From Patescibacteria group bacterium (GTDB lineage: Bacteria > Patescibacteriota > Patescibacteriia > UBA10025 > JAHIVO01): 64,000 nucleotides of DNA. The notes under the pieces are model-generated. The model was not told where the DNA came from. It worked only from the letters and a program-made list of their open reading frames with translations, and searched no databases. The stretch spans positions 305 through 64,304 of the forward strand of contig JAHIVO010000061.1 of the NCBI GenBank assembly GCA_018816445.1. The letters run 5' to 3'. A program made the translations under genes and the position numbers. Below, piece after piece: positions 10,569 to 28,310 of the stretch (position 1 is the first letter of the stretch; each line of letters begins with the position of its first letter).

Positions 10569-10672
10569 ATTCCTCCTTCGCCCTTCAGGCCACGGAGGAC
10601 TAGTAGTCTGGGGTAGTTCAATTGGTACCCCGTAAAGGATACGGGGCAGGCAACGCCGCAAGTCTATTAAAT

Positions 10673-10879
10673 TCTAGGGTAGTTTCCGCCAAAGGCGGAT
10701 CCGCCTATGGCGGACAATTGGCCCCGCCACAATGTTCTGGGATAGTTTAATTGGTAAAACCCTGCACTGTTAATGCAGTGATCCTGGTCCGAGTCCAGGT
10801 CCCAGAGTTTTGTGGCGGGGTAAAATAGAACGCTCCGCTGTTAACGGAGAGGTTGGAGGTCCAAGTCCTCCCCCTAGAG
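10673..10879 (+). tRNA. Outer tRNA-Asn (GTT)-like gene interrupted in the D-arm by ~135 nt that contain the complete inner tRNA-Asn
   Basis: Acceptor TCTAGGG (10673-10679) pairs with CCCTAGA (10872-10878). Anticodon stem CTCCG/CGGAG with loop CTGTTAA, T-arm GGAGG-TCCAAGT-CCTCC. D-stem GTTT (10682-85)/GAAC (10828-31). Insert clamped by CCCCGCCACA (10722-31)/TGTGGCGGGG (10811-20). Confidence 0.35.
10736..10807 (+). tRNA. tRNA-Asn (GTT), inner gene of a nested pair
   Basis: Cloverleaf by hand: acceptor TCTGGGA/TCCCAGA, D-stem GTTT/AAAC, anticodon stem CTGCA/TGCAG with loop CTGTTAA, T-arm CCTGG-TCCGAGT-CCAGG. 72 nt, no encoded CCA. T-loop has C at position 55, which is unusual. Confidence 0.65.
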
Positions 10880-11134
10880 TTCAGCGGGTAGATAAGTTAA
10901 CGGTAGTTTAGGTTCGCCCAATCATCCGATTGGGCGCCCCGTCGTATGACGGGGCAAGCCCTCCCCCTAGAGTTCGTCAGGTAGTTAAATTGTATAATAT
11001 TTTGGTTCGCCGTGAACCACTAAAGGGTTCACGGCGCCATGTACCCTTGAGTGGTACATGGCGATCCCAGCCCCCAGAGTTTAGCAGGCTTGTCCCGTAG
11101 GAGCGTCAGCGACTTACGGGATTCGAATCCTGCT

Positions 11135-11446
11135 CCCCGAGCCAATTGCCGAAAGTGACAACTTCTGTGGATAAGTCATAAAAGCCTTTAAATATCGGGT
11201 GAAAGTTGTACCCACTAGTTTTCTGTTTCGCAACTAAAATCTCCCCACCCAAGTAGGATTCGAATTTCTCATTCTTTTTAGCCTAAAATTCTTCCTTGTC
11301 CATCAGCAGTTTGAAGAGGTTTATAAGGTTTTCAGCCATGAGCCAGGCTTCGTCATCCGATATTTCTTCCCCATATTGCTTTTTGTAGATTTCCTTGAAT
11401 TTATCTATGTGATGTTGTTCAAGAGGCATTGATATCACCCCCTCAC
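11135..11446. repeat. Direct repeat copy 1 (~312 bp, ~90% identical to 15443-15756), encodes a 48-aa ORF
   Basis: Hand alignment of the two copies. They bracket the DGR-containing modules. Confidence 0.8.
11283..11429 (-). CDS. Conserved 48-aa protein (MPLEQHHIDKFKEIYKKQYGEEISDDEAWLMAENLINLFKLLMDKEEF)
   Basis: Strong RBS GAGGGGGTGATATCA before the ATG. The two copies differ at 12 nt but only 1 aa, which indicates purifying selection. Below the 60-aa track cutoff. Confidence 0.6.
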   Translation of the reverse strand: MPLEQHHIDKFKEIYKKQYGEEISDDEAWLMAENLINLFKLLMDKEEF

Positions 11447-11925: not shown

Positions 11926-12370
11926 CATTAATAGTAAAATTATGGAAAACCAACAACCTCAGCGGCCAACACTCAAGTCGGAAATACCTAAGAAGTGGTT
12001 TTATAGATATTTTGGATTAATTTTTATTTTGTTTGGATTTATTTATTACTTAATACTTCCATTTATTTTTGTTTTACTTGACCCCTCACCTGATAGGTAT
12101 CATTGCCCGTCGGAATTTACTGAATTTTCAGAATATATTTATACACCTCCAATTTCGTTGATTATTTTAATTATTCTTTTTATCGTCACTTTAATAATTA
12201 CCATACTGAGATATTTACCAAAATATAAAAATAACTCCGATATAATTTTTATTTATAAAAGAATTAATTTTATTGTATTTATTCTGTTTGTCATTTTTTA
12301 TTTTATAGCAATGCTTATTGTAGTCCCAATGGAATTTTTACCTGCAGAGGGGTGGGTTTCTCCTTGTTAA
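11915..12370 (+). CDS. Hypothetical polytopic membrane protein
   Basis: 151-aa ORF, very hydrophobic, overlaps the upstream ORF by 11 nt. Confidence 0.4.
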   Translation: MRRSINSKIMENQQPQRPTLKSEIPKKWFYRYFGLIFILFGFIYYLILPFIFVLLDPSPDRYHCPSEFTEFSEYIYTPPISLIILIILFIVTLIITILRYLPKYKNNSDIIFIYKRINFIVFILFVIFYFIAMLIVVPMEFLPAEGWVSPC

Positions 12371-12451
12371 TATAAATAACCAAAAATACATCTCATTAAA
12401 TTGGGGGATGTCCTTTCTTCGTTGTACAACTTATTTTTAATTAAGTTGTTA

Positions 12452-12494
12452 CTTCCCGCAAATAGGTTCTAACGTCCTCTACGACCCCGAGCCA
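12452..12494. repeat. Module-boundary motif copy M1 (CTTCCCGCAAA-GGTTCTAACGTCCTCTACGACCCCGAGCCA)
   Basis: Same ~45-nt motif also at 15410-15451, 17093-17138 and 28241-28310. A variant is at 11101-11146. Confidence 0.6.
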
Positions 12495-12610
12495 TCATTT
12501 CACTCCCATAAACATTGACCTTTCTGACATAGGCAAGTAGGACACTCGAACCTTCACTAGAAAAGCCAGTAAATACAGGGATATAAATTATCATCTGTGG
12601 ATCACTGATC

Positions 12611-12639
12611 TTGACAGATTGCCGTATCCATGGTAGCAT
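12611..12639 (+). promoter_or_regulatory. Sigma-70-like promoter TTGACA-N17-TAGCAT upstream of the DGR target gene
   Basis: Perfect -35 and a 4/6 -10 with 17-nt spacing, about 190 nt upstream of the target start codon. Confidence 0.4.
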
Positions 12640-12830
12640 CCATTGTTACTTTCCGCACTTTGTAATCCAAGAGCTAAAATCACGTTACCTCTTCATTTAA
12701 GAGCGGCTCCTTGCTGTAATCTCCGGACAGAGATTTCCAGAGAGCTGTTCTTAAATAACCGAAAGGTATCGCCTGGAAACCACAGTGGTTGACAGGCAGA
12801 TGTTTTTCAAAAACCAAGGAGGATGACGCC

Positions 12831-13448
12831 ATGGCAAAGACCATGACCCCATCTATGACTGATGGCCAGATTGACAAGGTTGTCGAAAACATCACAGCAG
12901 GGTTTCGCAAGAGACTTCGCGATCACAGGGATGAACTATCTTCAGACACAGTTCAAACCGTCCTCGGCCAGAAGGATTTTATTTCTGCCCTGTTCGCCGA
13001 GTTTCGCCAGCGCGTGGAAGCGGTCAGCAACATGATCGTTCGTAAGGTCAAGGTGGATCGCACCAGAACCTCGCAAGAGGCGCTGGACGTGACAGGACGT
13101 AAGCAGTATACCGACGACGATGTTGTGAAGTCCATGCCGAACGGCAAGGGCGATGAAACCGAGGTTATTTTCTTCAAGGTAGGTCGTACAATAAGTGACG
13201 ACGATCTGGAGAAAGAATATGAACTGCGCGGCCTGGTACCGGCTGATCCGTATTCACTCTGTGCCGTAAATGGAAATGATCCGGCGTTTGCCGATGAACA
13301 TCCCAATGGCACCCACTGGAAAGATTCCAACGGAAAATGGTGTTTCGCCTCCTTCGGCCGGTGGATCGACGAGCGCGGGGTGAGCGTCGACCGCGACGGT
13401 CGTGACTGGGCTGACTGCTGTTGGTTTGCCGGTGTCCGCAAGAATTAG
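12831..13448 (+). CDS. DGR target (variable) protein; C-terminal ligand-binding-type domain carries the VR
   Basis: AGGAGG RBS 8 nt before ATG 12831. C-terminus ...FGRWIDERGVSVDRDGRDWADCCWFAGVRKN is encoded by the VR. Confidence 0.75.
   Translation: MAKTMTPSMTDGQIDKVVENITAGFRKRLRDHRDELSSDTVQTVLGQKDFISALFAEFRQRVEAVSNMIVRKVKVDRTRTSQEALDVTGRKQYTDDDVVKSMPNGKGDETEVIFFKVGRTISDDDLEKEYELRGLVPADPYSLCAVNGNDPAFADEHPNGTHWKDSNGKWCFASFGRWIDERGVSVDRDGRDWADCCWFAGVRKN
13340..13441 (+). repeat. DGR variable repeat (VR)
   Basis: 102-nt homolog of TR 13778-13879. The 20 differences are all at TR adenines; every other position is identical. Confidence 0.85.
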
Positions 13449-13498
13449 GCACTTGGTCGCTTGAACGCATGGCACTTGATTGGTGCCCTTGGATACTA

Positions 13499-13528
13499 CA
13501 CTCTGCATGAGCTTGCTCATGCAGAGTG
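13499..13528 (+). terminator. Perfect 13-bp hairpin (CACTCTGCATGAG-CTTG-CTCATGCAGAGTG) + T-run, 58 nt downstream of VR
   Basis: Read directly. Candidate target-gene terminator and/or the DGR VR-flanking hairpin used in homing. Confidence 0.55.
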
Positions 13529-13777
13529 ATTTTTATCTGACAACGTGATATAATTTTATTTGGAGAGTAAGCGATTCAGCTTGCGGGCACGCCTGCAGGC
13601 GGCTGAAATCCGGATCATTGGGAAAGCCGGAATGCCTGTGGTTATGGCGACAGGCAGCGCGCTCCTTGATTCAATACCAACAAAGATACTTGGTGCAATA
13701 TGCTGGCGGAGCTTTTCTCCCGAATAAAATACAGCCCGGAGAGAATTCAACGGGCAGTGGTACGGAAGGCATGTTGC

Positions 13778-13879
13778 ATAATTCGCCAACTTCAACCGGT
13801 GGAACGACGAGCGCAAGGTGAACGTCAACCGCAACGATAATGACTGGAATGACAACTGTTGGTTTGCCGGTGTCCGCAA
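13778..13879 (+). repeat. DGR template repeat (TR), noncoding, rich in AAC/AAT codons in the VR frame
   Basis: In the VR frame TR reads FNRWNDERKVNVNRNDNDWNDNCWFAGVRN. 20 of its 30 adenines are substituted in VR. Confidence 0.85.
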
Positions 13880-13901
13880 CTATCTTTTTTGGAGCAATCC
13901 G

Positions 13902-14309
13902 CTATTTTGGCGGATTGTTTTTCATCAGTTGTTTTCGCCACCCGCCCAGCATTTTTCCAACCTCTACCAATGGAGGCGTGAGTTGGCTATATTTTCTGGT
14001 ATCCAGAACTTTCATTTCCCAGGCGATCTGCAGGAAAAATTTTAGGGCATCAAGCTTGGTTGAAGCACGCTCCACTACAGAGAGCTTCTTTTCCCTGGGT
14101 GAGTATCCGGCCAGAAGAATTAGTTCCAGAGCATCATAAAACAGCAGGTCAATCTTAGACCCGAGCGTAAAGCGGGACAGCCGCGGCAGGTTCGTCAAAT
14201 TCGCGTGCCATAACCTATACCCTGCCGCCAGTTTCTGTATAATGGGAATATCGACCGACAAATCCCTGGGGGGGGTAATCTTATTAATATGAAAACGCTT
14301 TTGACTCAT
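13902..14309 (-). CDS. avd: Avd-like accessory variability determinant (four-helix-bundle protein)
   Basis: LLAGYSPREKK (compare NIAEGYGR), FFLQIAWEMKVL and LVEVGKMLGGWRKQL resemble Avd / 23S-rRNA-IVS proteins. On the strand opposite to TR and RT, overlapping the RT start by 21 nt. Confidence 0.6.
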   Translation of the reverse strand: MSQKRFHINKITPPRDLSVDIPIIQKLAAGYRLWHANLTNLPRLSRFTLGSKIDLLFYDALELILLAGYSPREKKLSVVERASTKLDALKFFLQIAWEMKVLDTRKYSQLTPPLVEVGKMLGGWRKQLMKNNPPK

Positions 14310-15284
14310 GGGTTTAAGGATATTGTATCGATAGACAATCTATTGTCAGCCTGGCGTGAGTTTGTCCCGGGCAAAGCCGGGAAAAAGGATGTCAGGGAAT
14401 TTTACCGCCATCTGGCTGATAATATTATATCACTCCACGAGGAGCTTGAAAACGACACTTACCGACATGGCGGGTATATTCACTTCAGGATCTCCGATCC
14501 CAAGCCTAGGGATATTCACAAGGCAACCATCCGGGACAGGCTGGTGCACCATGCCATCTATCGCGTACTCTACCCCTTTTTAAGTGATACATTCATCGCC
14601 GATTCATATTCCTGCCAGTTGGGAAAGGGAACGCATCGGGCTATCAGAAGATTCCGGACTTTCGCCGGTCAGGTAAGCAGAAACAATACCCAAACCTGCT
14701 GGATATTAAAATGCGATATCAGGAAATTCTTTGCCAGCATTGACCATGCTATATTGATGAATATGCTAAGTGAGTATATTACTGACCAAAGAATTAATAC
14801 TTTATTGCGCGAGGTTATCCAGAGTTTCTGCTGGCAACCGGGCAAAGGTTTGCCGCTTGGCAATCTGACATCCCAGTTGTTCGTTAATGTGTATATGAAT
14901 GAGTTTGACCAATTCATGAAACATACATTAAAAGTCAAGTATTATCTGCGTTATGCTGATGATTTTGTTGTAATGTCTGATAACAGATCGTGGTTAAAAG
15001 GACTCATACCGATTATCAGTAATTTTCTGACGGTCAAACTCAAACTCACGCTTCATCCGAGCAAGGTATTTATTAAAACACTGGCTTCAGGAGTTGATTT
15101 TCTGGGCTGGGTGCATTTTCCGTATCATCAGGTACTCCGCACTTCCTCCAAAAGGCGCATGTTAAACAGGATTACTGAAAACCCGGAAACATCTACTATG
15201 CAGTCATATTTGGGTCTACTACAACATGGCAATGCATACAAGCTGGCAGAGCAGGTGATTAATCAGACCTATCTATGGAAGTAA
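14289..15284 (+). CDS. DGR reverse transcriptase
   Basis: RT motifs 1-7, YADDFVV (YxDD). The DGR-specific LGNLTSQLFVNVY ([I/L]GxxxSQ) replaces the retroviral QGxxxSP. N-terminal NLLSAWREF...VHHAIYRVL is typical of DGR RTs. Confidence 0.85.
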   Translation: MKTLLTHGFKDIVSIDNLLSAWREFVPGKAGKKDVREFYRHLADNIISLHEELENDTYRHGGYIHFRISDPKPRDIHKATIRDRLVHHAIYRVLYPFLSDTFIADSYSCQLGKGTHRAIRRFRTFAGQVSRNNTQTCWILKCDIRKFFASIDHAILMNMLSEYITDQRINTLLREVIQSFCWQPGKGLPLGNLTSQLFVNVYMNEFDQFMKHTLKVKYYLRYADDFVVMSDNRSWLKGLIPIISNFLTVKLKLTLHPSKVFIKTLASGVDFLGWVHFPYHQVLRTSSKRRMLNRITENPETSTMQSYLGLLQHGNAYKLAEQVINQTYLWK

Positions 15285-15409
15285 CCTTATCCACATTTAT
15301 TGTTGGAATACGCAATTGCAAACAAAGTGATTGAAGTATACAGTAAGATTGGGGCACGAGAATATTTCTTAATTTATTTAAAACAGTTTTCAGGAGAATT
15401 AAGTTGTCG

Positions 15410-15451
15410 CTTCTCGCAAAAAAGTTCTAACGTCCTCTACGACCCCGAGCC
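15410..15451. repeat. Module-boundary motif copy M2
   Basis: CTTCTCGCAAAAAGTTCTAACGTCCTCTACGACCCCGAGCCA, immediately followed by direct-repeat copy 2. Confidence 0.6.
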
Positions 15452-15756
15452 AATTGCCTAGAACGACAACTTACTGTGGATAAGTCATATTAACCTTTAA
15501 ATATCGGGTGAAAGTTGTACCCAAGAGTTTTCTATTTACGCAATTAAAATCTCCCCACCCAGGTAGGATTCGAATTTCTCTATCTTTTTAGTCTAAAATT
15601 CTTCCTTATCCATCAGCAGTTTGAAAAGATTTATCAAGTTATTGGCCATGAGCCAGGCTTCGTCGTCCGATATTTCTTCTCCATATTGTTTTTTGTAGAT
15701 TTCCTTAAATTTATCTATGTGATGTTGTTCAAGAGGCATTGGTTATCACCCCCTTT
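15443..15756. repeat. Direct repeat copy 2 (~312 bp)
   Basis: Aligned to 11135-11446 by hand. Confidence 0.8.
15593..15739 (-). CDS. Conserved 48-aa protein, copy 2 (differs at one residue, E33N)
   Basis: Same RBS and frame as copy 1. 10 of the 12 nucleotide differences are synonymous. Confidence 0.6.
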   Translation of the reverse strand: MPLEQHHIDKFKEIYKKQYGEEISDDEAWLMANNLINLFKLLMDKEEF

Positions 15757-15823
15757 GTATAAAAAAACAAAAAACTACTGTAGGTATTGCTTACAGTAGC
15801 CAATGTAAAAAGTTTAACTTAGT

Positions 15824-16153
15824 TTAAATATTTTTAAGCTCTTCAAAATTAACCTCTGGAATTTCAGTGTTTAGTTTTCGTTTGCTGTTCTTTTGTTTTT
15901 CAACAATTGCAAACATCTGATTTACTTCAGGAGATATGTTTTGATAGCTCACTTTTTTAAAGTTCCAGAATTTGTTATGCTGGTCTTTAAGTTGTAGTAA
16001 TTCATGCGCGGCCGAGCGAGAAATAAAAGAGATATTTGAGAAATCCAAAACTACACGACGGTCTGTAGTTTCCTGAATCCGCTGTTTTATAATGCTAATT
16101 ACATCCCTCGATGAGAGCATTGGGGATATATCTTTTAATGCAATATTATTCAT
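15824..16153 (-). CDS. STAS-like / DUF4325-type anti-sigma-factor-antagonist-like protein
   Basis: RVVLDFSNISFISRSAAHELL has a STAS/DUF4325-like signature. Lies downstream of the GHKL gene in the same operon. Confidence 0.45.
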   Translation of the reverse strand: MNNIALKDISPMLSSRDVISIIKQRIQETTDRRVVLDFSNISFISRSAAHELLQLKDQHNKFWNFKKVSYQNISPEVNQMFAIVEKQKNSKRKLNTEIPEVNFEELKNI

Positions 16154-16194
16154 ATATAATCATTATATCACAGTTATATTGTGGATATCCAATT

Positions 16195-17076
16195 TTACTC
16201 TGTATAGGGTGTTATGTCAATAGGACCTTTGGGATAAGGTATTTGATAGGAGATAATAACTCCTTGCCAGTAGAAATTTGGGAGCTGTACAATTACTTGT
16301 TTACCTTGTGAACCTAAAAAGACGCTATTACCAGTGAGAAGTAAAAATTGGCCACCTAGTGCTTTCCTAACTACCAACTGTGATGTACTTAATCCGTAAC
16401 CTCTTCCTTCCATTTTTTTGGTTGACTGTCCTTGAAATGCACGTCGAATTGCTTCATCGTCACCAACTTCTTGTTTCTGAACATCAAAGTATCTTCCAGC
16501 AATGCCCCTGCCGGTGTCAATTATACAAATATCTAATAACTTCTTCTTCGGATAATGTTGTGCAAATATCCAACCATAATTCTTTTGGCTATGTTCGAAT
16601 ATGTTGCCGACTAATTCGCTAATAGGGTACAAGATTGCATTGCTTGCACCCGCTACATTACCTGTTAGTTTTTCGATAATTCTATAAAAATTACTTTCCA
16701 GACCTTGTCTACTTGTTTCGTCTGCTTTCTTAAGAAAACCAATTGGAATTGTATAGCTTAATAAGCTCAATTGATTGGCATTCTCTATTCCATTAGGAAA
16801 AGAAATATCTCTTAAATATCTCTTTACTTGTTCTGATTGAGGTTGTTGATAATTGCTCTGATATTCTCTAACGTGGGCACACACAGTAAGTGTTAATAAA
16901 GGGTGCATCCAAGTACAGGACGATAATCGAAAATTAACTGGATTTTGTTTTATCCCTTTAAAAGTATCATATAGAGCTTTGATTTGATCTTTAAGGTCGT
17001 CAGATTTAGGATTGTTGACCCTTACTTCCTTTAGCATTAATATTTTATTATAGATTATTTGTATATAGTATACCAT
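16195..17076 (-). CDS. GHKL-family ATPase (histidine-kinase-like ATP-binding domain) with ~140-aa N-terminal extension
   Basis: N-box ELVGNIFEHS, G1 box IDTGRGI, G2 box GRGYGLS. Confidence 0.55.
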   Translation of the reverse strand: MVYYIQIIYNKILMLKEVRVNNPKSDDLKDQIKALYDTFKGIKQNPVNFRLSSCTWMHPLLTLTVCAHVREYQSNYQQPQSEQVKRYLRDISFPNGIENANQLSLLSYTIPIGFLKKADETSRQGLESNFYRIIEKLTGNVAGASNAILYPISELVGNIFEHSQKNYGWIFAQHYPKKKLLDICIIDTGRGIAGRYFDVQKQEVGDDEAIRRAFQGQSTKKMEGRGYGLSTSQLVVRKALGGQFLLLTGNSVFLGSQGKQVIVQLPNFYWQGVIISYQIPYPKGPIDITPYTE

Positions 17077-17092
17077 CTAGTAATTAATCTTT

Positions 17093-17138
17093 TAAGTTGT
17101 CTCTTCCCGCAAAAAAGTTCTAACGTCCTCTACCACCC
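17093..17138. repeat. Module-boundary motif copy M3 with an inserted GC hairpin CACCCAGAGCTGGGTG
   Basis: CTTCCCGCAAAAAAGTTCTAACGTCCTCTAC + hairpin. The 3' CCCCGAGCC part is missing. Confidence 0.55.
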
Positions 17139-17290
17139 AGAGCTGGGTGCTTATGCGCAGTGAAAGACGAAATATTGTTTCGTCTTCTTTGGATTGATTT
17201 TAATCCCTTTATGAGGGATAATATAGGCGGGATTACTTGGTTATTATTGAAAATCATGCTGAAGCGAAAAATTAAAATAATCAATAATTT

Positions 17291-17866
17291 ATGGCTAAAA
17301 AGATAAAACCTAATTGGGAAGCTTATCCCGTATCTGATAATGCCTTAGATGAAATGAATTTTCTTTTACTTTGCCCGAGATGTTTAAAAAAGACAGACCT
17401 TACTGATTATACCGTGAAAGTAGGAAAGAAAAAAAGAAAGAAAAAAATGACCATGCCTATCTGCCAGCCGTGCAAGAAGGCGGCGGTTCGGAAATTAAGA
17501 AAAGAGATGTTAATAATATTTGCTATTTGGGCTCCGGTGTCCTGGGGTCTTTTTATAGTTTTAGCAAAAACAGGTATTCTGGGAAGAACTATAGAAGCCT
17601 TGGGATTTCCTTGGGGGCTATTTCTTCCGGCGATTTTGCTTGGGATACCCCTGTATGCCCTGTACCTGCTTATTAGTTGCTTTATTCCTCCGAAAAAAGG
17701 AGGTTGGCCAATTGAATTGAAAGAACCATTATGGTCTCTCATGTTTGAAAACGAGACTTATGTCAGAGAGTTTACAAAGGCCAACGTCCAAAGGCTTAAT
17801 AGTGTTACGAATTACAACGTCGAGCCGCCTGAAGAGTTAATGAAAGATGGTCGTCTGCTTATCTAA
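17291..17866 (+). CDS. Hypothetical membrane protein with N-terminal CxxC...CxxC zinc-ribbon-like region
   Basis: LLCPRCLKK...MPICQPCKK followed by three hydrophobic helices. Confidence 0.4.
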   Translation: MAKKIKPNWEAYPVSDNALDEMNFLLLCPRCLKKTDLTDYTVKVGKKKRKKKMTMPICQPCKKAAVRKLRKEMLIIFAIWAPVSWGLFIVLAKTGILGRTIEALGFPWGLFLPAILLGIPLYALYLLISCFIPPKKGGWPIELKEPLWSLMFENETYVREFTKANVQRLNSVTNYNVEPPEELMKDGRLLI

Positions 17867-18022
17867 GCGGTGGTACACTCAAGAGGAAACCAAGAAAATT
17901 TTTTATCACCTGTCGCATAAGACTTTTGGAGGTGGGTCAGTTCGTCTTTCTTGGAGTGTGGGGTGTTGATTTTTAGTATATTTTTTCTTGATTAATGGGC
18001 TAAGTTGCGGGATAATCAAGGT

Positions 18023-18050
18023 GTATGATTATTATTATTATAAATCATGC
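18023..18050. promoter_or_regulatory. Putative NikR operator GTATGA-N16-TCATGC
   Basis: Matches the E. coli NikR site GTATGA-N16-TCATAC at 11 of 12 half-site positions. Lies ~190 bp upstream of nikR. Only a TCATGC half-site is present in the related repeat at 17237-17290. Confidence 0.4.
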
Positions 18051-18242
18051 TGAAACGAAAAACTAAAAAAATTAATAAAGCGGATCCGCCTTTGGTGAAG
18101 ATTTTGGCCCACGGAGTTCGGGGTTTATTATGTTGTTTTGATTTAAGGTGAGAGTCTCAGAGCACCGCGGCCGCGGGGTGAAAATCCCGCCATATGGCGG
18201 GGCGACTCGCGAAGTTAGGATCTGATGTGATATAATTAAATT

Positions 18243-18662
18243 ATGAGTACAATAAAGAGATTTAGCATTTCTCTCGACAACGCCCTCCTGGAAAAATTTA
18301 AGAGGAAGATAATGACCAAAGGCTATGCCAACCGCTCACAGGCCATGGCGGATTTAATTAGGAAATCTTTGGTAAATATAGAATGGGATGCTTCGCAAGG
18401 CGAGGTTATTGGGACAGTTACCCTCGTGTACAACCATCACCGTAAGGATATCGTCAATCAGCTTGTCTCTTTACAGCATCAATTTCACCAAGGCATTCTC
18501 GCCACGACACACATTCACATGGACAAGGAAAATTGTTTGGAGGTTTTAGTGGTTAAGGGTAAGGCGAAAAAGATTCGAGAGGTTTATAATCAGTTGGGGA
18601 GACTTAAAGGAATTAAATTCAGCGATTTATCCACAGCCACCACCGGCAGGCATTTGACTTGA
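18243..18662 (+). CDS. nikR: Nickel-responsive regulator NikR
   Basis: N-terminal ribbon-helix-helix (KRFSISLDNALLEKF) and C-terminal metal-binding domain with H-rich motifs (HHRKD, HIHMD). Confidence 0.75.
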   Translation: MSTIKRFSISLDNALLEKFKRKIMTKGYANRSQAMADLIRKSLVNIEWDASQGEVIGTVTLVYNHHRKDIVNQLVSLQHQFHQGILATTHIHMDKENCLEVLVVKGKAKKIREVYNQLGRLKGIKFSDLSTATTGRHLT

Positions 18663-18740
18663 TCCTTAATTTTTTTTATAATAACAGTGTTACGATATTT
18701 AAATTCGTAATACTTATTAACTATTAAACTATAATAATTT

Positions 18741-19436
18741 ATGCACATTCCAGACGGATTTTTGAATTCCGGCACCTCGGGAAGCCTGATTGTGGCAGCA
18801 GTTGGGTTTTTAAGCTTGGCAGTGAGCCGGGTGAGGCAGGGATTTTTTGAGAAAGTAAGAACGGCAACACTGGCAACGCCAGAGGGCGCTGAATTCGGCA
18901 GCACTACGGTTGCCAAGCTGACCTCATACGGCCGAAATAAAATGTTTCGCATGGCGGTAGTCGGTGCTTTTGTGTTCGCCGCGCAGATGGTAGATTTTCC
19001 GGTGGTGCACGGAACATCCGGTCATCTTTTGGGCGGTGTGCTAGCGGCAATCCTGCTCGGACCCTGGGCAGGCATGTTGGTTATTGCCGCGGTTTTGGCC
19101 GTGCAGTCGCTGATGTTCGCTGACGGCGGCCTGGTGGCTTTGGGCGCTAATATTATTAATATGGGTGTTATTGGCGCTGTTGGCGGTTATTATGCTTATA
19201 GGTTTTTGTTTAAGCGAATTAAAAAAGTTTTGCCAGCGGCTTTTATTGCGGCTTGGCTGTCCGTGGTGGTTGCCGCTTCGGTTTGCGCGGTTGAATTGTC
19301 AGTTTCAGGCACGGAAAACCTGGCGCAGTCTTTTTCAGCCATGGCAGGTATTCACGCCCTGATTGGTTTGGGAGAGGGTCTGATTACCGTTATGGTTTTA
19401 ATCGGATTAAAGCATAAGGAGAAAAACAATGAATAA
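18741..19436 (+). CDS. cbiM: ECF-type cobalt/nickel transporter substrate-capture component CbiM/NikM
   Basis: Begins MHIPDGFL, the canonical CbiM N-terminus. Polytopic. Confidence 0.8.
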   Translation: MHIPDGFLNSGTSGSLIVAAVGFLSLAVSRVRQGFFEKVRTATLATPEGAEFGSTTVAKLTSYGRNKMFRMAVVGAFVFAAQMVDFPVVHGTSGHLLGGVLAAILLGPWAGMLVIAAVLAVQSLMFADGGLVALGANIINMGVIGAVGGYYAYRFLFKRIKKVLPAAFIAAWLSVVVAASVCAVELSVSGTENLAQSFSAMAGIHALIGLGEGLITVMVLIGLKHKEKNNE

Positions 19437-19722
19437 AAAATATATTTATTTAGCCCTTATTGCGTTTTTAATTGGTGGCATTGTTTCCTTGTTTGCTTCT
19501 TCGTCACCAGACGGCCTGGAAAAAGTAGCTGAAGACAAAGGTTTTATTCAAACAGCTCTGGACTATCCTTTTCAAACATTGTTGCCGGATTATACTTTCC
19601 CAGTGAACAATGAATACTTAGCTACTGCCTTGGCTGGTACTATTGGTACAGTCGTGGTTTTTCTGATTATTTTGCTGGCAGGGAAGGTTTTATTTCCCGC
19701 CCGGCCCGGGGCAGGGACATGA
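19429..19722 (+). CDS. PDGLE-domain small membrane protein (CbiN/NikN-like)
   Basis: SSPDGLEKV motif and two TM helices. Overlaps the cbiM stop. Confidence 0.55.
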   Translation: MNKKYIYLALIAFLIGGIVSLFASSSPDGLEKVAEDKGFIQTALDYPFQTLLPDYTFPVNNEYLATALAGTIGTVVVFLIILLAGKVLFPARPGAGT

Positions 19723-19793
19723 AATGCGGGATAGTGTCGTCACCAGAAAATTTTTTTAGTTAAAAACGACGGTAATTTTCCACTCCAGTTATT

Positions 19794-20840
19794 TCAATCA
19801 CCTAATACGTAGGCAAAAATGAGAGGCGCCACGATTGTAGCGTCGCTTTCGATGATGAAGCGCGGGGTTTCCGGTTCCAATTTATTCCAGGTGATTTTTT
19901 CGTTAGGTACGGCGCCGCTGTATGAGCCGTATGAAGTGGTACTGTCGGATATCTGACAGAAGAATTGCCACGGTCGGCATTTTCTCTGCAGGTCAAGGCG
20001 GATCAGCGGCACCACGCAAATGGGGAAATCTCCGGCTATGCCGCCGCCGATTTGGAAAAAGCCGATTCCCGCTCCCGCAGCGTCAGTTTTTTCGTACCAT
20101 TGTACAAGTTCAAGCATGTATTCAATTCCCGATTTGACCGTGTGCGGATTTTTCAATGTTTTTTGCATGATGAGTTCACTGGCGAAACTATTGCCCATAG
20201 TGCTGTCTTCCCAACCTGGTACGAATAGGGGAAGGTTTTTTTTCGCGGCCGCCAATACCCAGGAGTCTCTGGGGTTAATTTCATAGTATTGTTCAAGCTT
20301 TCCCGATAGCAAAATTTCGTAAAAGAATTCGTAAGGAAATTTGCGCTGGCCTGATTTTTCAGCTAAGGACCAGATTTCTACCATTATCTGGTCGATTTTT
20401 GTCATTGCCTCATCTTCGGGAATACAGGTATCCGTGACCCGGCTTAGGCCGCTTTGGCGGAGTTCGTTTTCCTGCTGCGCGGTCAGTTCGCGATAATGAG
20501 GCAGACGTCGGTAGTGATTATGGGCCACGAGATTGAAGATGTCCTCTTCCAGGTTGGCTCCGGTGCAACTGACGGCGTGGATTTTGTCCCGACGGATCAT
20601 TTCTGCCAGCGACACGCCCAGTTCAGCTGTACTCATAGCTCCGGCCAGAGTAGCCATCATTTGGCCGCCTTTTTGCAAGTGTTCGCAATAGGCATGAGCT
20701 GCGTCTTTGACAACTGCCGCGTTAAAATGACGGTAGTTATGGTTGATAAACTGCCGTATTTCCTTATAATTATTTTTATTTTTTGTATTGATTATCTCAT
20801 ATTGGTTATTTGTAGCCATAATTAAAAAACAGTTATTCAA
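19794..20840 (-). CDS. Deoxyhypusine synthase-like protein
   Basis: HAVSCTGANLEEDIF, QIGGGIAGDFPI and SDSTTSYGSYSGA align with DHS family motifs. Confidence 0.7.
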   Translation of the reverse strand: MNNCFLIMATNNQYEIINTKNKNNYKEIRQFINHNYRHFNAAVVKDAAHAYCEHLQKGGQMMATLAGAMSTAELGVSLAEMIRRDKIHAVSCTGANLEEDIFNLVAHNHYRRLPHYRELTAQQENELRQSGLSRVTDTCIPEDEAMTKIDQIMVEIWSLAEKSGQRKFPYEFFYEILLSGKLEQYYEINPRDSWVLAAAKKNLPLFVPGWEDSTMGNSFASELIMQKTLKNPHTVKSGIEYMLELVQWYEKTDAAGAGIGFFQIGGGIAGDFPICVVPLIRLDLQRKCRPWQFFCQISDSTTSYGSYSGAVPNEKITWNKLEPETPRFIIESDATIVAPLIFAYVLGD

Positions 20841-21364
20841 TTTAGTTAGAATGTCTTGTTAAATTAAAAATGGCTAGGCCGCAAACACCAAGTGAATAAA
20901 ATTGATGCTAGTTTTTTTCTGAATGAATATACGAAAAAATACTGCTCAAATTTGTTGAAAGCAAGATGGTTTGACTGCGGCCGTTTAATATAATTTTTAT
21001 AACGCATCTGATTGGAAAAAATATTTATTTTATTATACTACATCTGTTTTATTATACTATAATATTTGGCAATGTAAAGGTTTTTTAAAAATATTTTTTT
21101 AGGCACTTTAAAAGGAATTGAGTTATAAAATTAGAGGCGAAGAATTTCTAAGATTATATTCATTTATCTTATTGAACATTTTAAATGATTAAAAGGGTAG
21201 AGTGATAATTTTGGAGAATATGGCAGAGTTAGTGAAGTTGGTGAAGAGTAGAATAAGGGTAAGATAAGAAATTATTAAACAATTAAGTAAGTATTTAGAA
21301 AAAAGCAATATAGATTTAAAAAATGGTGATTGGTTCCTATACTTGACAAAAGAAGTTGGAGGAA

Positions 21365-21394
21365 TATACTTAATTATGGGTATATATTCATAAT
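21365..21394. promoter_or_regulatory. Conserved upstream element (paralog of 6861-6890); a TTGACA hexamer lies at 21343-21348
   Basis: ATATACTTAATTATGGGTATATATTCATAAT versus TATATTTAATTATGGGTATATATTCATAAT. Confidence 0.45.
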
Positions 21395-21485
21395 TGTTGA
21401 TAACTCATTAATTTAGCTAGTTTTGGGTAAATATTCAATATCAAAAAAGTCGAATTTAATAATTAACCAATAAGGAAATAAATAT

Positions 21486-21806
21486 ATGCCAAGACAAGAT
21501 AGTCAAGGTCCCAGATGGGGCGGCGGTCCAGGCGCTGGTTGGGGCATGGGACCCTGCGGTGCAGGTTGGGGTGGCGGCCCATGTTTCGGTAGAGGTGGAA
21601 GGCGAGGCCGAGGACGCGGCATGGGCTGGGGTTTCATGCCCAGCAGAATGTACGGCGGATATAATTACGGCTACCAACTAAGCAAGGATGACGAGCTGAA
21701 AATGATAGAAGATGAGGAAGCAGCCCTTAAAGGTGAGCTTGAGGCCTTACAGCAGGCCAAGCAGCAATTGCGATCCGAAAAAAATCCGCCAAAAGCGGGC
21801 AAGTAA
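21486..21806 (+). CDS. Glycine-rich DUF5320-like protein with C-terminal coiled coil (paralog of 6995-7261)
   Basis: MPRQDSQGPRWGGGPGAGWGMGPCGAGWGGGPC... followed by ELKMIEDEEAALKGELEALQQAKQQL. Confidence 0.55.
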   Translation: MPRQDSQGPRWGGGPGAGWGMGPCGAGWGGGPCFGRGGRRGRGRGMGWGFMPSRMYGGYNYGYQLSKDDELKMIEDEEAALKGELEALQQAKQQLRSEKNPPKAGK

Positions 21807-21916
21807 GATAGTCCTGTTCCATTAACTCTAAATAATGGGCTAGAGCTTTGAACATTCAACAGGACTATCTTTAGCCCAATTTTTAATCAGTTTATAATAG
21901 TAAATCAAATAAATTT

Positions 21917-22099
21917 ATGACAATAGGAGATCAGGCAGGAGGTGGCCGTGTATTAAGTGGCCGTGGTTTGGGACCGGCCGGTTCAAGTATTTGCGTTTGT
22001 CCGAAGTGTGACTATAAAGAAGCACACAAACGTGGTGTGCCCTGCAATCAGATATCGTGTCCTAAATGTGGAACAAAGATGAGGGGTGAAAATTGCTAG
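21917..22099 (+). CDS. Small Gly-rich N-terminus + 7-Cys zinc-ribbon-like protein
   Basis: GGGRVLSGRGLGPAG followed by CVCPKC...CNQISCPKC...C. Present only in cassette 2. Confidence 0.4.
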   Translation: MTIGDQAGGGRVLSGRGLGPAGSSICVCPKCDYKEAHKRGVPCNQISCPKCGTKMRGENC

Positions 22100-22108
22100 G
22101 GTATACAT

Positions 22109-22384
22109 ATGCCACGACCCCAATTATATCGGAGAATTAAATTTAGCCCACGAGTCACTTATTTTAAGCCGCAGGGTATTCCTTTGCGTGCTCTTGAAGT
22201 TGTAGAGTTAAGTAAAGAAGAAGCTGAAGCCTTGCGTTTGAAGAACGTGACCGGACTTGATCAGCATGAGTGCGCTAAAAAAATGCATACTTCGCAAAGC
22301 ACGTTTCAGCGTATTTTATCGTCAGCCTATCGTAAAATCAGCTATGCCCTGATAAAAGGTAAGGCCATTTCAATAGAGAAATAA
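22109..22384 (+). CDS. DUF134/UPF0251-family predicted DNA-binding protein (paralog of 7440-7715)
   Basis: About 70% identical to the 7440 product by eye. Confidence 0.7.
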   Translation: MPRPQLYRRIKFSPRVTYFKPQGIPLRALEVVELSKEEAEALRLKNVTGLDQHECAKKMHTSQSTFQRILSSAYRKISYALIKGKAISIEK

Positions 22385-22495
22385 AATATCATAAAAAGTA
22401 ATTAATTTTTTATATAAACCGTCTCATCTTCATTGTTGACAATTTTTTATTATGGTGATAATTTTAAAGTTAAGTATACTTAACTTATAATCACT

Positions 22496-22900
22496 ATGGT
22501 TAAACAAAACCAGGAAGATTATTTGCGAGCAATCTATAACTTTTGGGAACACCATGATAGAGTTATTCGTTCCGTGGATATTGCCGGGTATTTGAATATT
22601 TCCAAAGCGTCAGTTTCTCAAATGTTAAAAAAGCTGGCTCAACAGAGGTACGTAAAAATTAAGCCTTATTCATATGTATTATTTACCACTAAAGGTTTAG
22701 CATTGGCCAAAAGATTGATGTACAAACATAGAATTATTGAAGTTTTTTTAAGGGAGATACTGGGTATTAATAAAAAGAATGTTCATGAGGAGGCAAACAG
22801 ACTCGAACACGGTTTTTCTGATGAGACAATCAGGAAATTAGCAAAATTTATAAATAATCCGAAATATTGCCCAGGTGGTAAAAAAATTCCAAAATTATAA
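22496..22900 (+). CDS. DtxR/MntR-family metal-dependent transcriptional repressor
   Basis: EDYLRAIY, ISKASVSQMLKKL HTH and a dimerisation helix. Confidence 0.75.
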   Translation: MVKQNQEDYLRAIYNFWEHHDRVIRSVDIAGYLNISKASVSQMLKKLAQQRYVKIKPYSYVLFTTKGLALAKRLMYKHRIIEVFLREILGINKKNVHEEANRLEHGFSDETIRKLAKFINNPKYCPGGKKIPKL

Positions 22901-22906
22901 AAAATT

Positions 22907-23134
22907 ATGAAACAAGCTTTAATTACTTTTAGGGAGGGCGACAAGGTAAAAATAGAATGTGTGCATTGCGGGAAGAATTTTAGGAAGCGGTTGATTGATT
23001 TAGGTTTGTTTGATGGCGCAGAAATAGAGATTATTAAAAATGATAAATACGGTCCCCTGATTCTTAAAATTTTTAATTCCCAAATTGCCTTGGGTCGAGG
23101 CCAGGCTGCTAAAATATATGGAAATAAAATCTAA
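22907..23134 (+). CDS. feoA: FeoA
   Basis: 75-aa SH3-like protein. [12 protein letters not shown]...[11 protein letters not shown] is a FeoA pattern. Confidence 0.7.
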
Positions 23135-28219: not shown

Positions 28220-28240
28220 TCACAGACAGTTTATTGTCCC

Positions 28241-28310
28241 TTTCCGCAAAAAGGTTCTAACATCCTCTACCCAGCCTCTCGCGAGAGGCTGGGTCTACAA
28301 CCCCGAGCTA
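28241..28310. repeat. Module-boundary motif copy M4 with inserted GC hairpin CCCAGCCTCTCGCGAGAGGCTGGG flanked by duplicated TCTAC
   Basis: CTTTCCGCAAAAAGGTTCTAACATCCTCTAC-[hairpin]-TCTACAACCCCGAGCTA. Confidence 0.55.

Follow-up and report, generated by a model that had tools for sequence, protein, structure and literature searches.

A recently active diversity-generating retroelement with a reversed avd gene and a structured RNA domain upstream of its template repeat in a Patescibacteria genome

The window analyzed here, a stretch of 64,000 nt from the Patescibacteria group bacterium GCA_018816445.1 (contig JAHIVO010000061.1, positions 305 to 64,304 of the forward strand), contains a diversity-generating retroelement (DGR) that is complete and recently active and whose template repeat (TR) is preceded by a structured RNA domain that appears to be undescribed in the literature searched. 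Its parts, all four of them intact, are ordered as target gene with variable repeat (VR), TR, avd on the reverse strand, and reverse transcriptase (RT), and we put the probability that this cassette is a functional DGR of a Patescibacteria (CPR) bacterium with that gene order at roughly 90%. A complete DGR had been proposed in an earlier note on this DNA; each defining component was tested and found, and the coordinates given there for the target gene and for the VR as its last 33 codons were confirmed (Table 1).

Table 1. Positions of the DGR components, RNA elements, and flanking repeats in the window
Feature	Position	Strand	Basis or remarks
Left 56-nt direct repeat	12439..12494	.	Brackets cassette
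Promoter-like site of target gene	12611..12639	+	TTGACA-17-TAGCAT, TG before -10
Target gene 5' UTR	12646..12830	+	~185 nt; inferred from promoter position
Target (variable protein) gene	12831..13448	+	205 aa; AAGGAGG 9 nt before ATG
VR	13344..13441	+	Last 33 codons of target; repeat alignment
Hairpin after VR	13499..13528	+	13-bp stem, 4-nt loop, then ATTTTTAT
Extended -10 element for DGR RNA	13546..13554	+	TGATATAAT
Structured 5' domain	13561..13781	+	220 nt, seven helices; conserved in 43 loci
P1	13570-13573/13601-13604
P2	13579-13588/13591-13600
P3	13620-13627/13661-13667		Window row poorly aligned
P4	13633-13643/13646-13656
P5	13693-13704/13768-13779
P6	13707-13711/13717-13721
P7	13734-13738/13751-13755
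Bridging strand	13677..13704	+	Consensus AAAUGAAGAUAC-UUG-GUACAGAGU
TR	13782..13879	+	Repeat alignment
3' stem-loop	13891..13921	+	Then U-tract to ~13926; overlaps avd stop codon
avd (accessory variability determinant)	13902..14309	-	135 aa, pI 10.2, four-helix bundle
DGR reverse transcriptase	14289..15284	+	331 aa; Pfam RVT_1
RT motif LGNLTSQ	14856-14876	+	[I/L]GxxxSQ motif 4
RT active site YADD	14952-14963	+	YxDD
Right 56-nt direct repeat	15397..15452	.	91% identical to left copy

The repeat pair carries the signature of the element. VR and TR are 98 nt each, lie on the same strand 438 nt apart, and end in a common, invariant, G+C-rich 24-nt sequence, GTTGGTTTGCCGGTGTCCGCAA, a candidate for the IMH that DGRs have at the VR 3' end. 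They differ at 17 positions, every one of which is an adenine in the TR; with 27 A in the 98 nt of the TR, the chance of such a distribution is 1.8e-12 (hypergeometric). All 27 TR adenines fall at codon position 1 or 2 of the VR frame, and none falls at the third. Adenine restriction of the mismatches had been named as a refutation test of the DGR claim, and it survived the recount. The TR begins 333 nt after the target stop codon, rather than the 337 bp reported previously, and although it is noncoding, as had been stated, it is not a bare repeat but forms part of a conserved, structured RNA approximately 370 nt long.

Both of the RT motifs on which the original assignment relied, LGxxxSQ and YADD, were located on the coding sequence. 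The best solved relative of the enzyme is bRT of Bordetella phage BPP-1 (8ub7_A; E 7.5e-43), and the next, a retron-type/group II RT, follows at E 1.4e-18, a gap of 24 orders of magnitude; at the level of sequence comparison, the RT is shown to belong to the DGR clade. Sub-threshold NCBIfam matches to group II intron, Drt, and retron RT models could be read as a sign that the enzyme derives from some other retroelement (a group II intron, a retron, or a defence RT) and that the repeat is an ordinary duplication, but none of these matches reaches its cut-off, RNA families of introns or retrons were not detected, and the closeness of bRT, the adjacent avd gene, and mismatches that are confined to adenines and avoid third codon positions make this origin barely credible. 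The 5' end of avd and the start of the RT gene share 21 nt. Its product scores 46 bits against the Pfam model bAvd (PF22296; cut-off, 40) and 71 bits against the NCBIfam model DivGenRetAVD (NF033474), below the cut-off of 80. PDB sequence searches returned no match for either the target protein or Avd, and fold comparison, used for both, revealed a resemblance of the latter to solved Avd, a basic four-helix bundle. The Avd-like gene postulated earlier is thus upheld by fold and by Pfam match, and its strand, which had been left unstated, is minus.

The enrichment of DGRs in Patescibacteria is already known, and A-biased TR/VR pairs with the same gene order were present in ~47 of 80 species-level loci, avd having the same orientation in all relatives that possess it. 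The arrangement, with avd between TR and RT on the reverse strand, is architecture B3, TR-(avd)-RT, described for CPR DGRs by Wu et al. (2018; PMC5758913). The cassette also resembles the CPR DGRs of that study and of Roux et al. (2021; PMC8144416), placed by the latter in DGR clade 2, in its Patescibacteria host, in being cellular and not viral, and in having a target without a recognisable membrane or Pfam domain; its gene order is no different. As a DGR, the cassette therefore adds little, the gene order having already been catalogued.

Direct natural evidence of the activity of this compact cassette was obtained, without read data, from two public genomes. Over 10,695 nt, the identity between the window and GCA_018813575.1 (L001) is 99.86%. 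Of the 14 substitutions that separate them, 12 lie in the VR, each at a TR-A site (binomial P 6e-30), and no difference was seen in TR, avd, or the DGR RNA. The VR, for which hypervariability had been predicted, is the only hypervariable stretch between these near-identical genomes, and since they diverged its changes have been confined almost entirely to TR-adenine positions. A concentration of this kind, 12 of 14 differences over 10.7 kb, requires homing after a very recent split. The differences are mosaic, with 6 mutated sites shared and 12 differing, so that partial conversion or several events are needed to account for them. An intact-looking cassette could nevertheless be a fossil that no longer homes and whose VR differences are old: DGR decay is common in the target family, and at 33 of 80 loci the target stands without a DGR, several of these loci retaining fragments of the leader or of the RT. 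We consider this very improbable for the present element, in which all open reading frames are intact and nearly all divergence from L001, where TR, avd, and the RNA are identical, is at the sites that homing would alter. No further VR alleles emerged when JGI metagenome contigs were searched for the 41-nt 3' junction of the VR.

The target gene is preceded by a promoter-like site that matches 10 of 12 consensus positions, and a TTGAC-N17-TAtaaT consensus is kept at the same place in relatives of the locus, in line with the promoter assigned there previously; in one relative (L003), homology to the window begins at position 12610. Alignment of the relatives shows a long hairpin in the 5' UTR, the final 10 nt of which, GGATGACGCC, are nearly invariant; the UTR gave no Rfam match. 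The hairpin beyond the VR, a possible target-site cruciform, starts 58 nt downstream of it, further off than the cruciform of BPP-1. It is found with its T-run at the same place in nearly all members of the target family and has the appearance of a terminator for the target gene. The protein itself comprises three N-terminal helices followed by a C-type-lectin fold, as had been anticipated for its C terminus, so that the VR lies inside coding sequence and in a fold tolerant of variation. In this respect, and in its adenine-only TR/VR differences, the system is like the BPP-1 DGR (mtd-avd-TR-brt), where the VR is likewise at the C terminus of a C-type-lectin fold, but the target here is a small, signal-less cellular protein and not a phage tail fibre. 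Its lectin domain of ~140 residues is much smaller than the solved C-type-lectin folds of Treponema TvpA (2y3c), BPP-1 Mtd (1yu0), and Bdellovibrio Bd2740 (8oks), with which it shares 2 to 10% identity, and the three-helix N-terminal part takes the place of a fibre, lipoprotein, or secretion signal. No signal peptide, membrane segment, or Pfam match (neither FGE-sulfatase nor DUF1566) was detected in the target; since it lacks the first two, its ligand is probably encountered in the cytoplasm or after non-classical export.

The target is not peculiar to this DGR: the protein belongs to a Patescibacteria family of >960 members, ~40% of those surveyed having no DGR nearby. The contig index held no exact copy of the window's target protein, and a 95%-identical relative (P0002) led to the informative locus. 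This very large family of well-folding, 200-residue lectin-fold proteins without export signals, with or without a DGR, offers a tractable system for establishing what the non-membrane targets of CPR DGRs bind.

The TR sits inside a ~370-nt non-coding plus-strand RNA, predicted to extend from ~13561 to ~13926, in which a 5' domain of seven helices precedes it and a stem-loop follows it on the 3' side. A TAnAAT element ~10 nt before the leader is kept in 43 loci; this -10 element would direct the start of the DGR RNA. The 53 pairs of the 5' domain are 95.5% paired, compared with 38 to 47% in slid controls, and 44 of them show changes on both sides (compensatory), a number reached by none of 500 shuffles. 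G-U pairs are frequent, which assigns the domain to the plus strand, and a single-sequence fold of the window recovers P4 to P7. The leader RNA matched no Rfam family at or above the gathering threshold, and no description of a structured RNA upstream of the TR was found in the accounts of CPR TR-(avd)-RT DGRs that were consulted. The covariation-supported alignment could found an RNA family. Downstream of the TR, a stem-loop is present in 42 of 43 loci, with a stem of 8 to 14 bp and variable sequence, and is followed by TTTTGTTT; helices 2 and 3 of this region are 88 to 90% paired, with changes on both sides in 7 of 8 pairs. Stem-loop and U-tract together may be a terminator only, but the stem-loop is also the positional equivalent of the Avd-binding stem-loops predicted in other DGRs; Handa et al. 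place these just downstream of the TR in many DGRs, CPR ones included.

A single leader strand appears to bridge the two flanks of the TR. In its 5' half it is paired with 13881-13892, immediately beyond the TR, and in its 3' half, within P5, with 13768-13779, immediately in front of the TR. The window's minimum-energy fold recovers both duplexes, with the TR looped out between them, and the duplexes end 2 to 3 nt or less from the two borders of VR/TR homology. Cognate leader/post-TR duplexes have a mean of -7.2 kcal/mol against -6.0 for non-cognate combinations, a difference reached by 0 of 10000 permutations in a test that is inflated by the relatedness of the loci. This duplex covaries modestly, with 80% of its pairs formed and a mismatch at one position in 40 of 43 loci. 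Alternatively, this part of the leader can fold locally into a 5-bp hairpin, CUUCA-A6-UGAAG, whose conserved sequence leaves no covariation to observe.

BPP-1 provides a model for this arrangement. There, too, one RNA strand appears to be paired with both TR flanks in two adjacent duplexes, four nt apart here and two in BPP-1. What comes next in our RNA, as in the BPP-1 spacer (Sp), is a short stem-loop, then single-stranded A-rich sequence, then another stem-loop. In contrast to BPP-1, avd is on the opposite strand and between TR and RT, and the scaffold, of ~220 nt, lies 5' of the TR, with only ~45 nt after it; the Rfam motif of the BPP-1 spacer found no sequence match in the DGR RNA. We lean, on balance, towards the view that this RNA is its BPP-1 counterpart in circularly permuted form, with the whole scaffold (primer strand, stop-duplex strand, short stem-loop, A-rich strand, and protein-binding stem-loops) 5' of the TR and priming at the TR 3' end from A13688. 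The RT-Avd complex would bind the RNA, in which strand 13677-13704 would form two adjacent duplexes, with the 12 nt after the TR and with the 12 nt before it, looping the TR out between them. In the manner of Sp A56 in phage BPP-1, A13688, at the end of the first duplex, would prime cDNA synthesis in cis; copying would begin at C13880/A13879 and halt at the second duplex, limits that are those of the VR/TR homology, and the cDNA, with adenines miscopied, would replace the VR. The mechanism would then be that of the Bordetella phage with its spacer-like scaffold shifted from the 3' to the 5' side of the TR, the reversed avd gene leaving no space downstream. We infer the priming site, the RNA start, and the role of each helix.

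An alternative is that the DGR is real but its RNA conventional: the functional spacer would lie downstream of the TR, carried by read-through RNA complementary to avd, and the 5' domain would serve another purpose, for instance in stabilising the RNA, controlling the amount of TR RNA, or recruiting a host factor. The spacer of BPP-1 is indeed 3' of its TR, TR and RT share a strand here so that a transcript running from one to the other is possible, the leader/post-TR covariation is only moderate, and the stem-loops of Handa et al. come right after the TR, in CPR DGRs as elsewhere. We nevertheless regard it as unlikely. A stem-loop and U-tract occur 12 to 45 nt after the TR in 42 of 43 loci, and what lies beyond is avd coding sequence; the 5' domain, on the other hand, has the Sp order of elements, its duplexes stop within 2 to 3 nt of the homology borders, and the minimum-energy fold presents the TR as a loop between them. 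If the permuted arrangement is correct, this RNA represents an undescribed class of structured RNA, with seven helices and a long-range duplex, and DGRs conserve the geometry of cis-priming and not the linear order of its elements. The 5' domain supplies a testable model of cDNA priming in DGRs with a reversed avd gene.

Weinberg et al. (2017; PMC5737381) described two RNA motifs associated with RTs, RT-7 (RF03028) and RT-16 (RF03019), to which no role has been assigned. The RT-7 hairpin aligns with P4 of the window (E 0.004) and RT-16 with the P5-P7 module, including AUAAAAUACAG (E 0.43), both below threshold. This resemblance is an unconfirmed lead and was dropped as evidence: the scores are 21 to 22 bits, against gathering thresholds of 117 and 50, and there was no such match in nine relatives or in the consensus-like locus L030.

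The G+C content of the target is 0.53, that of leader plus TR 0.53, that of avd 0.47, and that of the RT 0.43, compared with 0.34 in the flanks and a window mean of 0.41. The GC shift claimed in the earlier note was therefore borne out by measurement, whereas the horizontal origin deduced from it is only plausible, on the basis of GC content and of the 56-nt direct repeats on either side of the cassette. The direct repeats and the GC shift are the only pointers to an island or integron, and this interpretation of the repeats was rejected in view of the lack of an integrase and of a recognisable att site; Pfam identified no integrase among the neighbouring genes, and no tRNA is encoded by the repeat. 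In the tRNA-like array at 10600-11145, ARAGORN (introns allowed) detected no further tRNA or tmRNA. The 56-nt repeats, possibly part of the element, occur in four copies within the window, and the right-hand copy continues into a 300-nt duplicate of 11131-11431.

The earlier note had proposed a complete diversity-generating retroelement (DGR), and both the observation and its interpretation were upheld, subject to some corrections, with VR, TR, avd and RT all present (see table for positions other than that of avd). VR and TR lie in the same orientation at an offset of 438 nt; a recount found 17 mismatches between them, and all 17 have A in TR, as the adenine restriction proposed in that note predicted. 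TR contains 27 A in 98 nt, giving a chance probability of 1.8e-12 for 17/17 mismatches on A, and in the VR frame every one of these adenines falls at the first or second position of a codon, chiefly as AAC or AAT. The final 33 codons of the target ORF are VR, again as claimed, and adenine-only mismatches, adenines confined to these codon positions and the location of VR at the ORF end together constitute the DGR VR/TR signature; no further VR-like copy was found within the window. The closest relative of the RT among solved structures was the Bordetella phage BPP-1 DGR RT (8ub7_A; E, 7.5e-43), followed by a retron-type/group II intron RT (1.4e-18), and the DGR-type motifs were confirmed as LGNLTSQ (residues 190-196) and YADD (residues 222-225).

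Features of the DGR cassette, flanking repeats and decayed relatives (window numbering unless a locus is named)
Feature	Position	Strand	Remark
56-nt repeat copies	12439-12494, 15397-15452, 17090-17145, 28227-28282		
Target promoter-like site	12611-12639	+	Upstream of target ORF
Target 5' UTR	12646-12830	+	~185 nt
Target ORF	12831-13448	+	AAGGAGG 9 nt upstream of ATG
VR	13344-13441	+	Upstream copy of 98-nt direct repeat
Hairpin with T-run	13499-13528	+	First element after target stop codon
Extended -10	13546-13554	+	TGATATAAT; after hairpin, before leader
TR	13782-13879	+	Downstream copy of 98-nt direct repeat
RT	14289-15284	+	Pfam RVT_1 match
L003/L004	876-1067		DGR remnant; locus is 87% identical to the window over 12610-13638, homology ends inside leader
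L024	6334-6719		DGR remnant; leader nt ~85 fused to last third of RT
L082	945-1301		DGR remnant; leader nt ~85 fused to last third of RT
L044 and L079			Further loci with DGR decay

The element is demonstrably active and is one more member of a known CPR type. A contig of the near-identical genome GCA_018813575.1 (L001) was aligned to window positions 12307-23000, with 99.86% identity; 12 of the 14 substitutions were located inside VR, all at sites where TR has A, and the remaining two were at 14606 and 17946. The binomial probability of at least 12/14 substitutions hitting these 27 of 10,695 sites is 6e-30. TR was unchanged between the two genomes, and the VR substitutions altered ten residues of the target protein. 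The VR A-sites form a mosaic, with 6 mutated sites common to both genomes and 12 that differ, which is indicative of either partial conversion or repeated events. Separately, a G8 homopolymer at 14269-14276, unchanged in L001 and 12 nt upstream of the RT start codon, corresponds on the opposite strand to C8 in avd codons 12-14 (PPP), within the unstructured Avd N-terminus, and could be a slippage switch.

Scanning a single genome from each GTDB species recovered 80 loci with target relatives, mainly in Paceibacteria and Parcubacteria-type MAGs. About 47 have the same cassette of target (+), TR (+), avd (-) and RT (+), with TR 310-430 nt downstream of the target and TR/VR mismatches overwhelmingly at A; because this gene order is shared, the reversed avd is a lineage trait. 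In the scheme of Wu et al. (PMC5758913) this arrangement is architecture B3, TR-(avd)-RT, and both the host range and the domain-less target agree with clade 2 of Roux et al. (PMC8144416), which is restricted to Patescibacteria. At the other ~33 loci the target is present and no TR, avd or RT was found within 6 kb; one such locus adjoins rpsL-rpsG-fusA, and several retain cassette fragments, so the DGR has recurrently been lost from loci that keep the target. The decayed loci break off within the initial 60-90 nt of the leader RNA, perhaps because this is a hot spot for deletion or because the loci share ancestry. Two relatives (L031, 10428-12148; L040, 5305-7025) carry a second, distantly related DGR-like avd/RT pair a few kilobases from the first cassette, in same-strand orientation, with Avd 25% and RT 31% identical to those of the window.

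What merits follow-up is the conserved RNA domain 5' of TR and the permuted priming geometry that it implies. The distance from the target stop codon to TR is 333 nt, rather than the 337 bp first reported, and contains the hairpin, the -10 and a leader of ~220 nt conserved across 43 loci. RNAalifold predicted 48 base pairs in the leader alignment; with one helix added, there were 53 pairs in seven helices, 95.5% paired, compared with 38 to 47% when the partners were slid by 1-3 columns. Both sides had changed in 44/53 pairs, and 0/500 shuffles reached any of five measures. Abundant G-U pairs in the helices indicate that the + strand is the RNA. On the 3' side of TR, ~12 conserved nt are followed by an 8-14 bp stem-loop and a U-rich tract in 42/43 loci; the stem-loop varies in sequence with pairing preserved, and it overlaps the stop codon of avd. 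In the window and in 16 relatives alike, the RNA around TR matched no Rfam family at or above threshold. The conserved 5' RNA domain is well supported by these alignments, and from it we infer a function. A 55-aa ORF annotated in a relative (window 13560-13727) falls within this structured RNA and is probably spurious. Between the target stop codon and the terminator hairpin (13449-13498), most family members have 3-6 copies of CTT[TGA]G spaced 7-8 or 15-16 nt apart (window and relatives L007-L087); these are present with or without a DGR and could form a protein- or RNA-binding array.

In BPP-1, nucleotides 47-56 of the spacer RNA (Sp), which lies 3' of TR, pair with the TR 3' end, with A56 as the primer, and two nucleotides further on Sp 59-70 pairs with a segment just upstream of TR to form the stop duplex; beyond that come a short stem-loop, then unpaired adenosines and a ring of single-stranded RNA, and then a long stem-loop that binds the RT, while an Avd-binding stem-loop directly follows TR. 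We infer the same double pairing role for one leader strand here, the bridging strand (consensus AAAUGAAGAUAC-UUG-GUACAGAGU; 13677-13704, +). Its first half pairs with 13881-13892, immediately 3' of TR; at alignment columns 222/520 the pair alternates among A-U, C-G and U-A, the window itself has two compensated changes, and cognate duplexes were more stable than noncognate ones in 10,000/10,000 permutations. Its second half is helix P5, whose partner (13768-13779) ends three nt before TR, and downstream of it are P6, a short stem-loop, then the A-rich GAAUAAAAUACAG, and P7, a further stem-loop. The minimum-energy fold of the window RNA alone gave the same arrangement with TR looped out (z, -2.6). 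Since the Sp element order is kept, with the difference that the whole strand lies 5' of TR, the RNA is probably a circular permutation of the BPP-1 arrangement. Copying of cDNA would start next to the bridging/post-TR duplex, with A13688 as the predicted primer (paired A-U with U13881 in 42/43 loci), and would stop at the P5 duplex; the VR/TR homology borders (13782 and 13879) fall within 2-3 nt of these duplexes, in agreement with copying that begins beside one and ends at the other. A permuted arrangement with the scaffold 5' of TR was not described in the literature searched, in which one comparative DGR analysis covered only 40 nt upstream of TR.

The promoter-like site and leader sequence that the earlier note placed before the target also stood, with a 5' UTR slightly shorter than its ~190 nt. 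In relatives this UTR contains a long hairpin, ATAGCCAAAAG...CTTTTGGCTATG, in which compensatory changes can be seen; the hairpin is less clear in the window. The 10 nt directly upstream of the ATG, GGATGACGCC, are almost invariant at the nucleotide level. The cassette is indeed GC-rich (0.43-0.53 versus 0.34 in the flanks), and a horizontal origin is plausible; since its surroundings yielded neither an integrase nor a recognisable attachment site, mobility is no more than possible. The four copies of the 56-nt repeat (minus-strand core, GTAGAGGAYGTTAGAACYTTTTTGCGGRAAGNGACAAY) are all intergenic and 66-91% identical to the first; the first two flank the cassette as direct repeats, and the sole Rfam match, RAGATH-33 (E, 0.59), is at chance level. 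A 300-nt duplicate (11131-11431 and 15440-15741; 91% identical) carries in each copy a minus-strand ORF of 48-51 aa (MPLEQHHIDKFKEIYKKQYGEEISDDEAWLM...) with no Pfam match. Directly to the right of the cassette, a STAS/DUF4325-like protein (subthreshold; 15824-16153) adjoins a 293-aa HATPase_c protein (16195-17076), both on the minus strand, and a copy of the 56-nt repeat bounds this pair too. To the left, an array of degenerate tRNA-like units (10600-11145) contains tRNA-Asn (10735-10808) and a unit at 10817-10875 that scores 28.9 bits against a tRNA threshold of 29, likewise with GTT in the anticodon loop; the two look nested, because the matching 5' acceptor strand of this unit, TCTAGGG, sits at ~10675, upstream of the intact tRNA.
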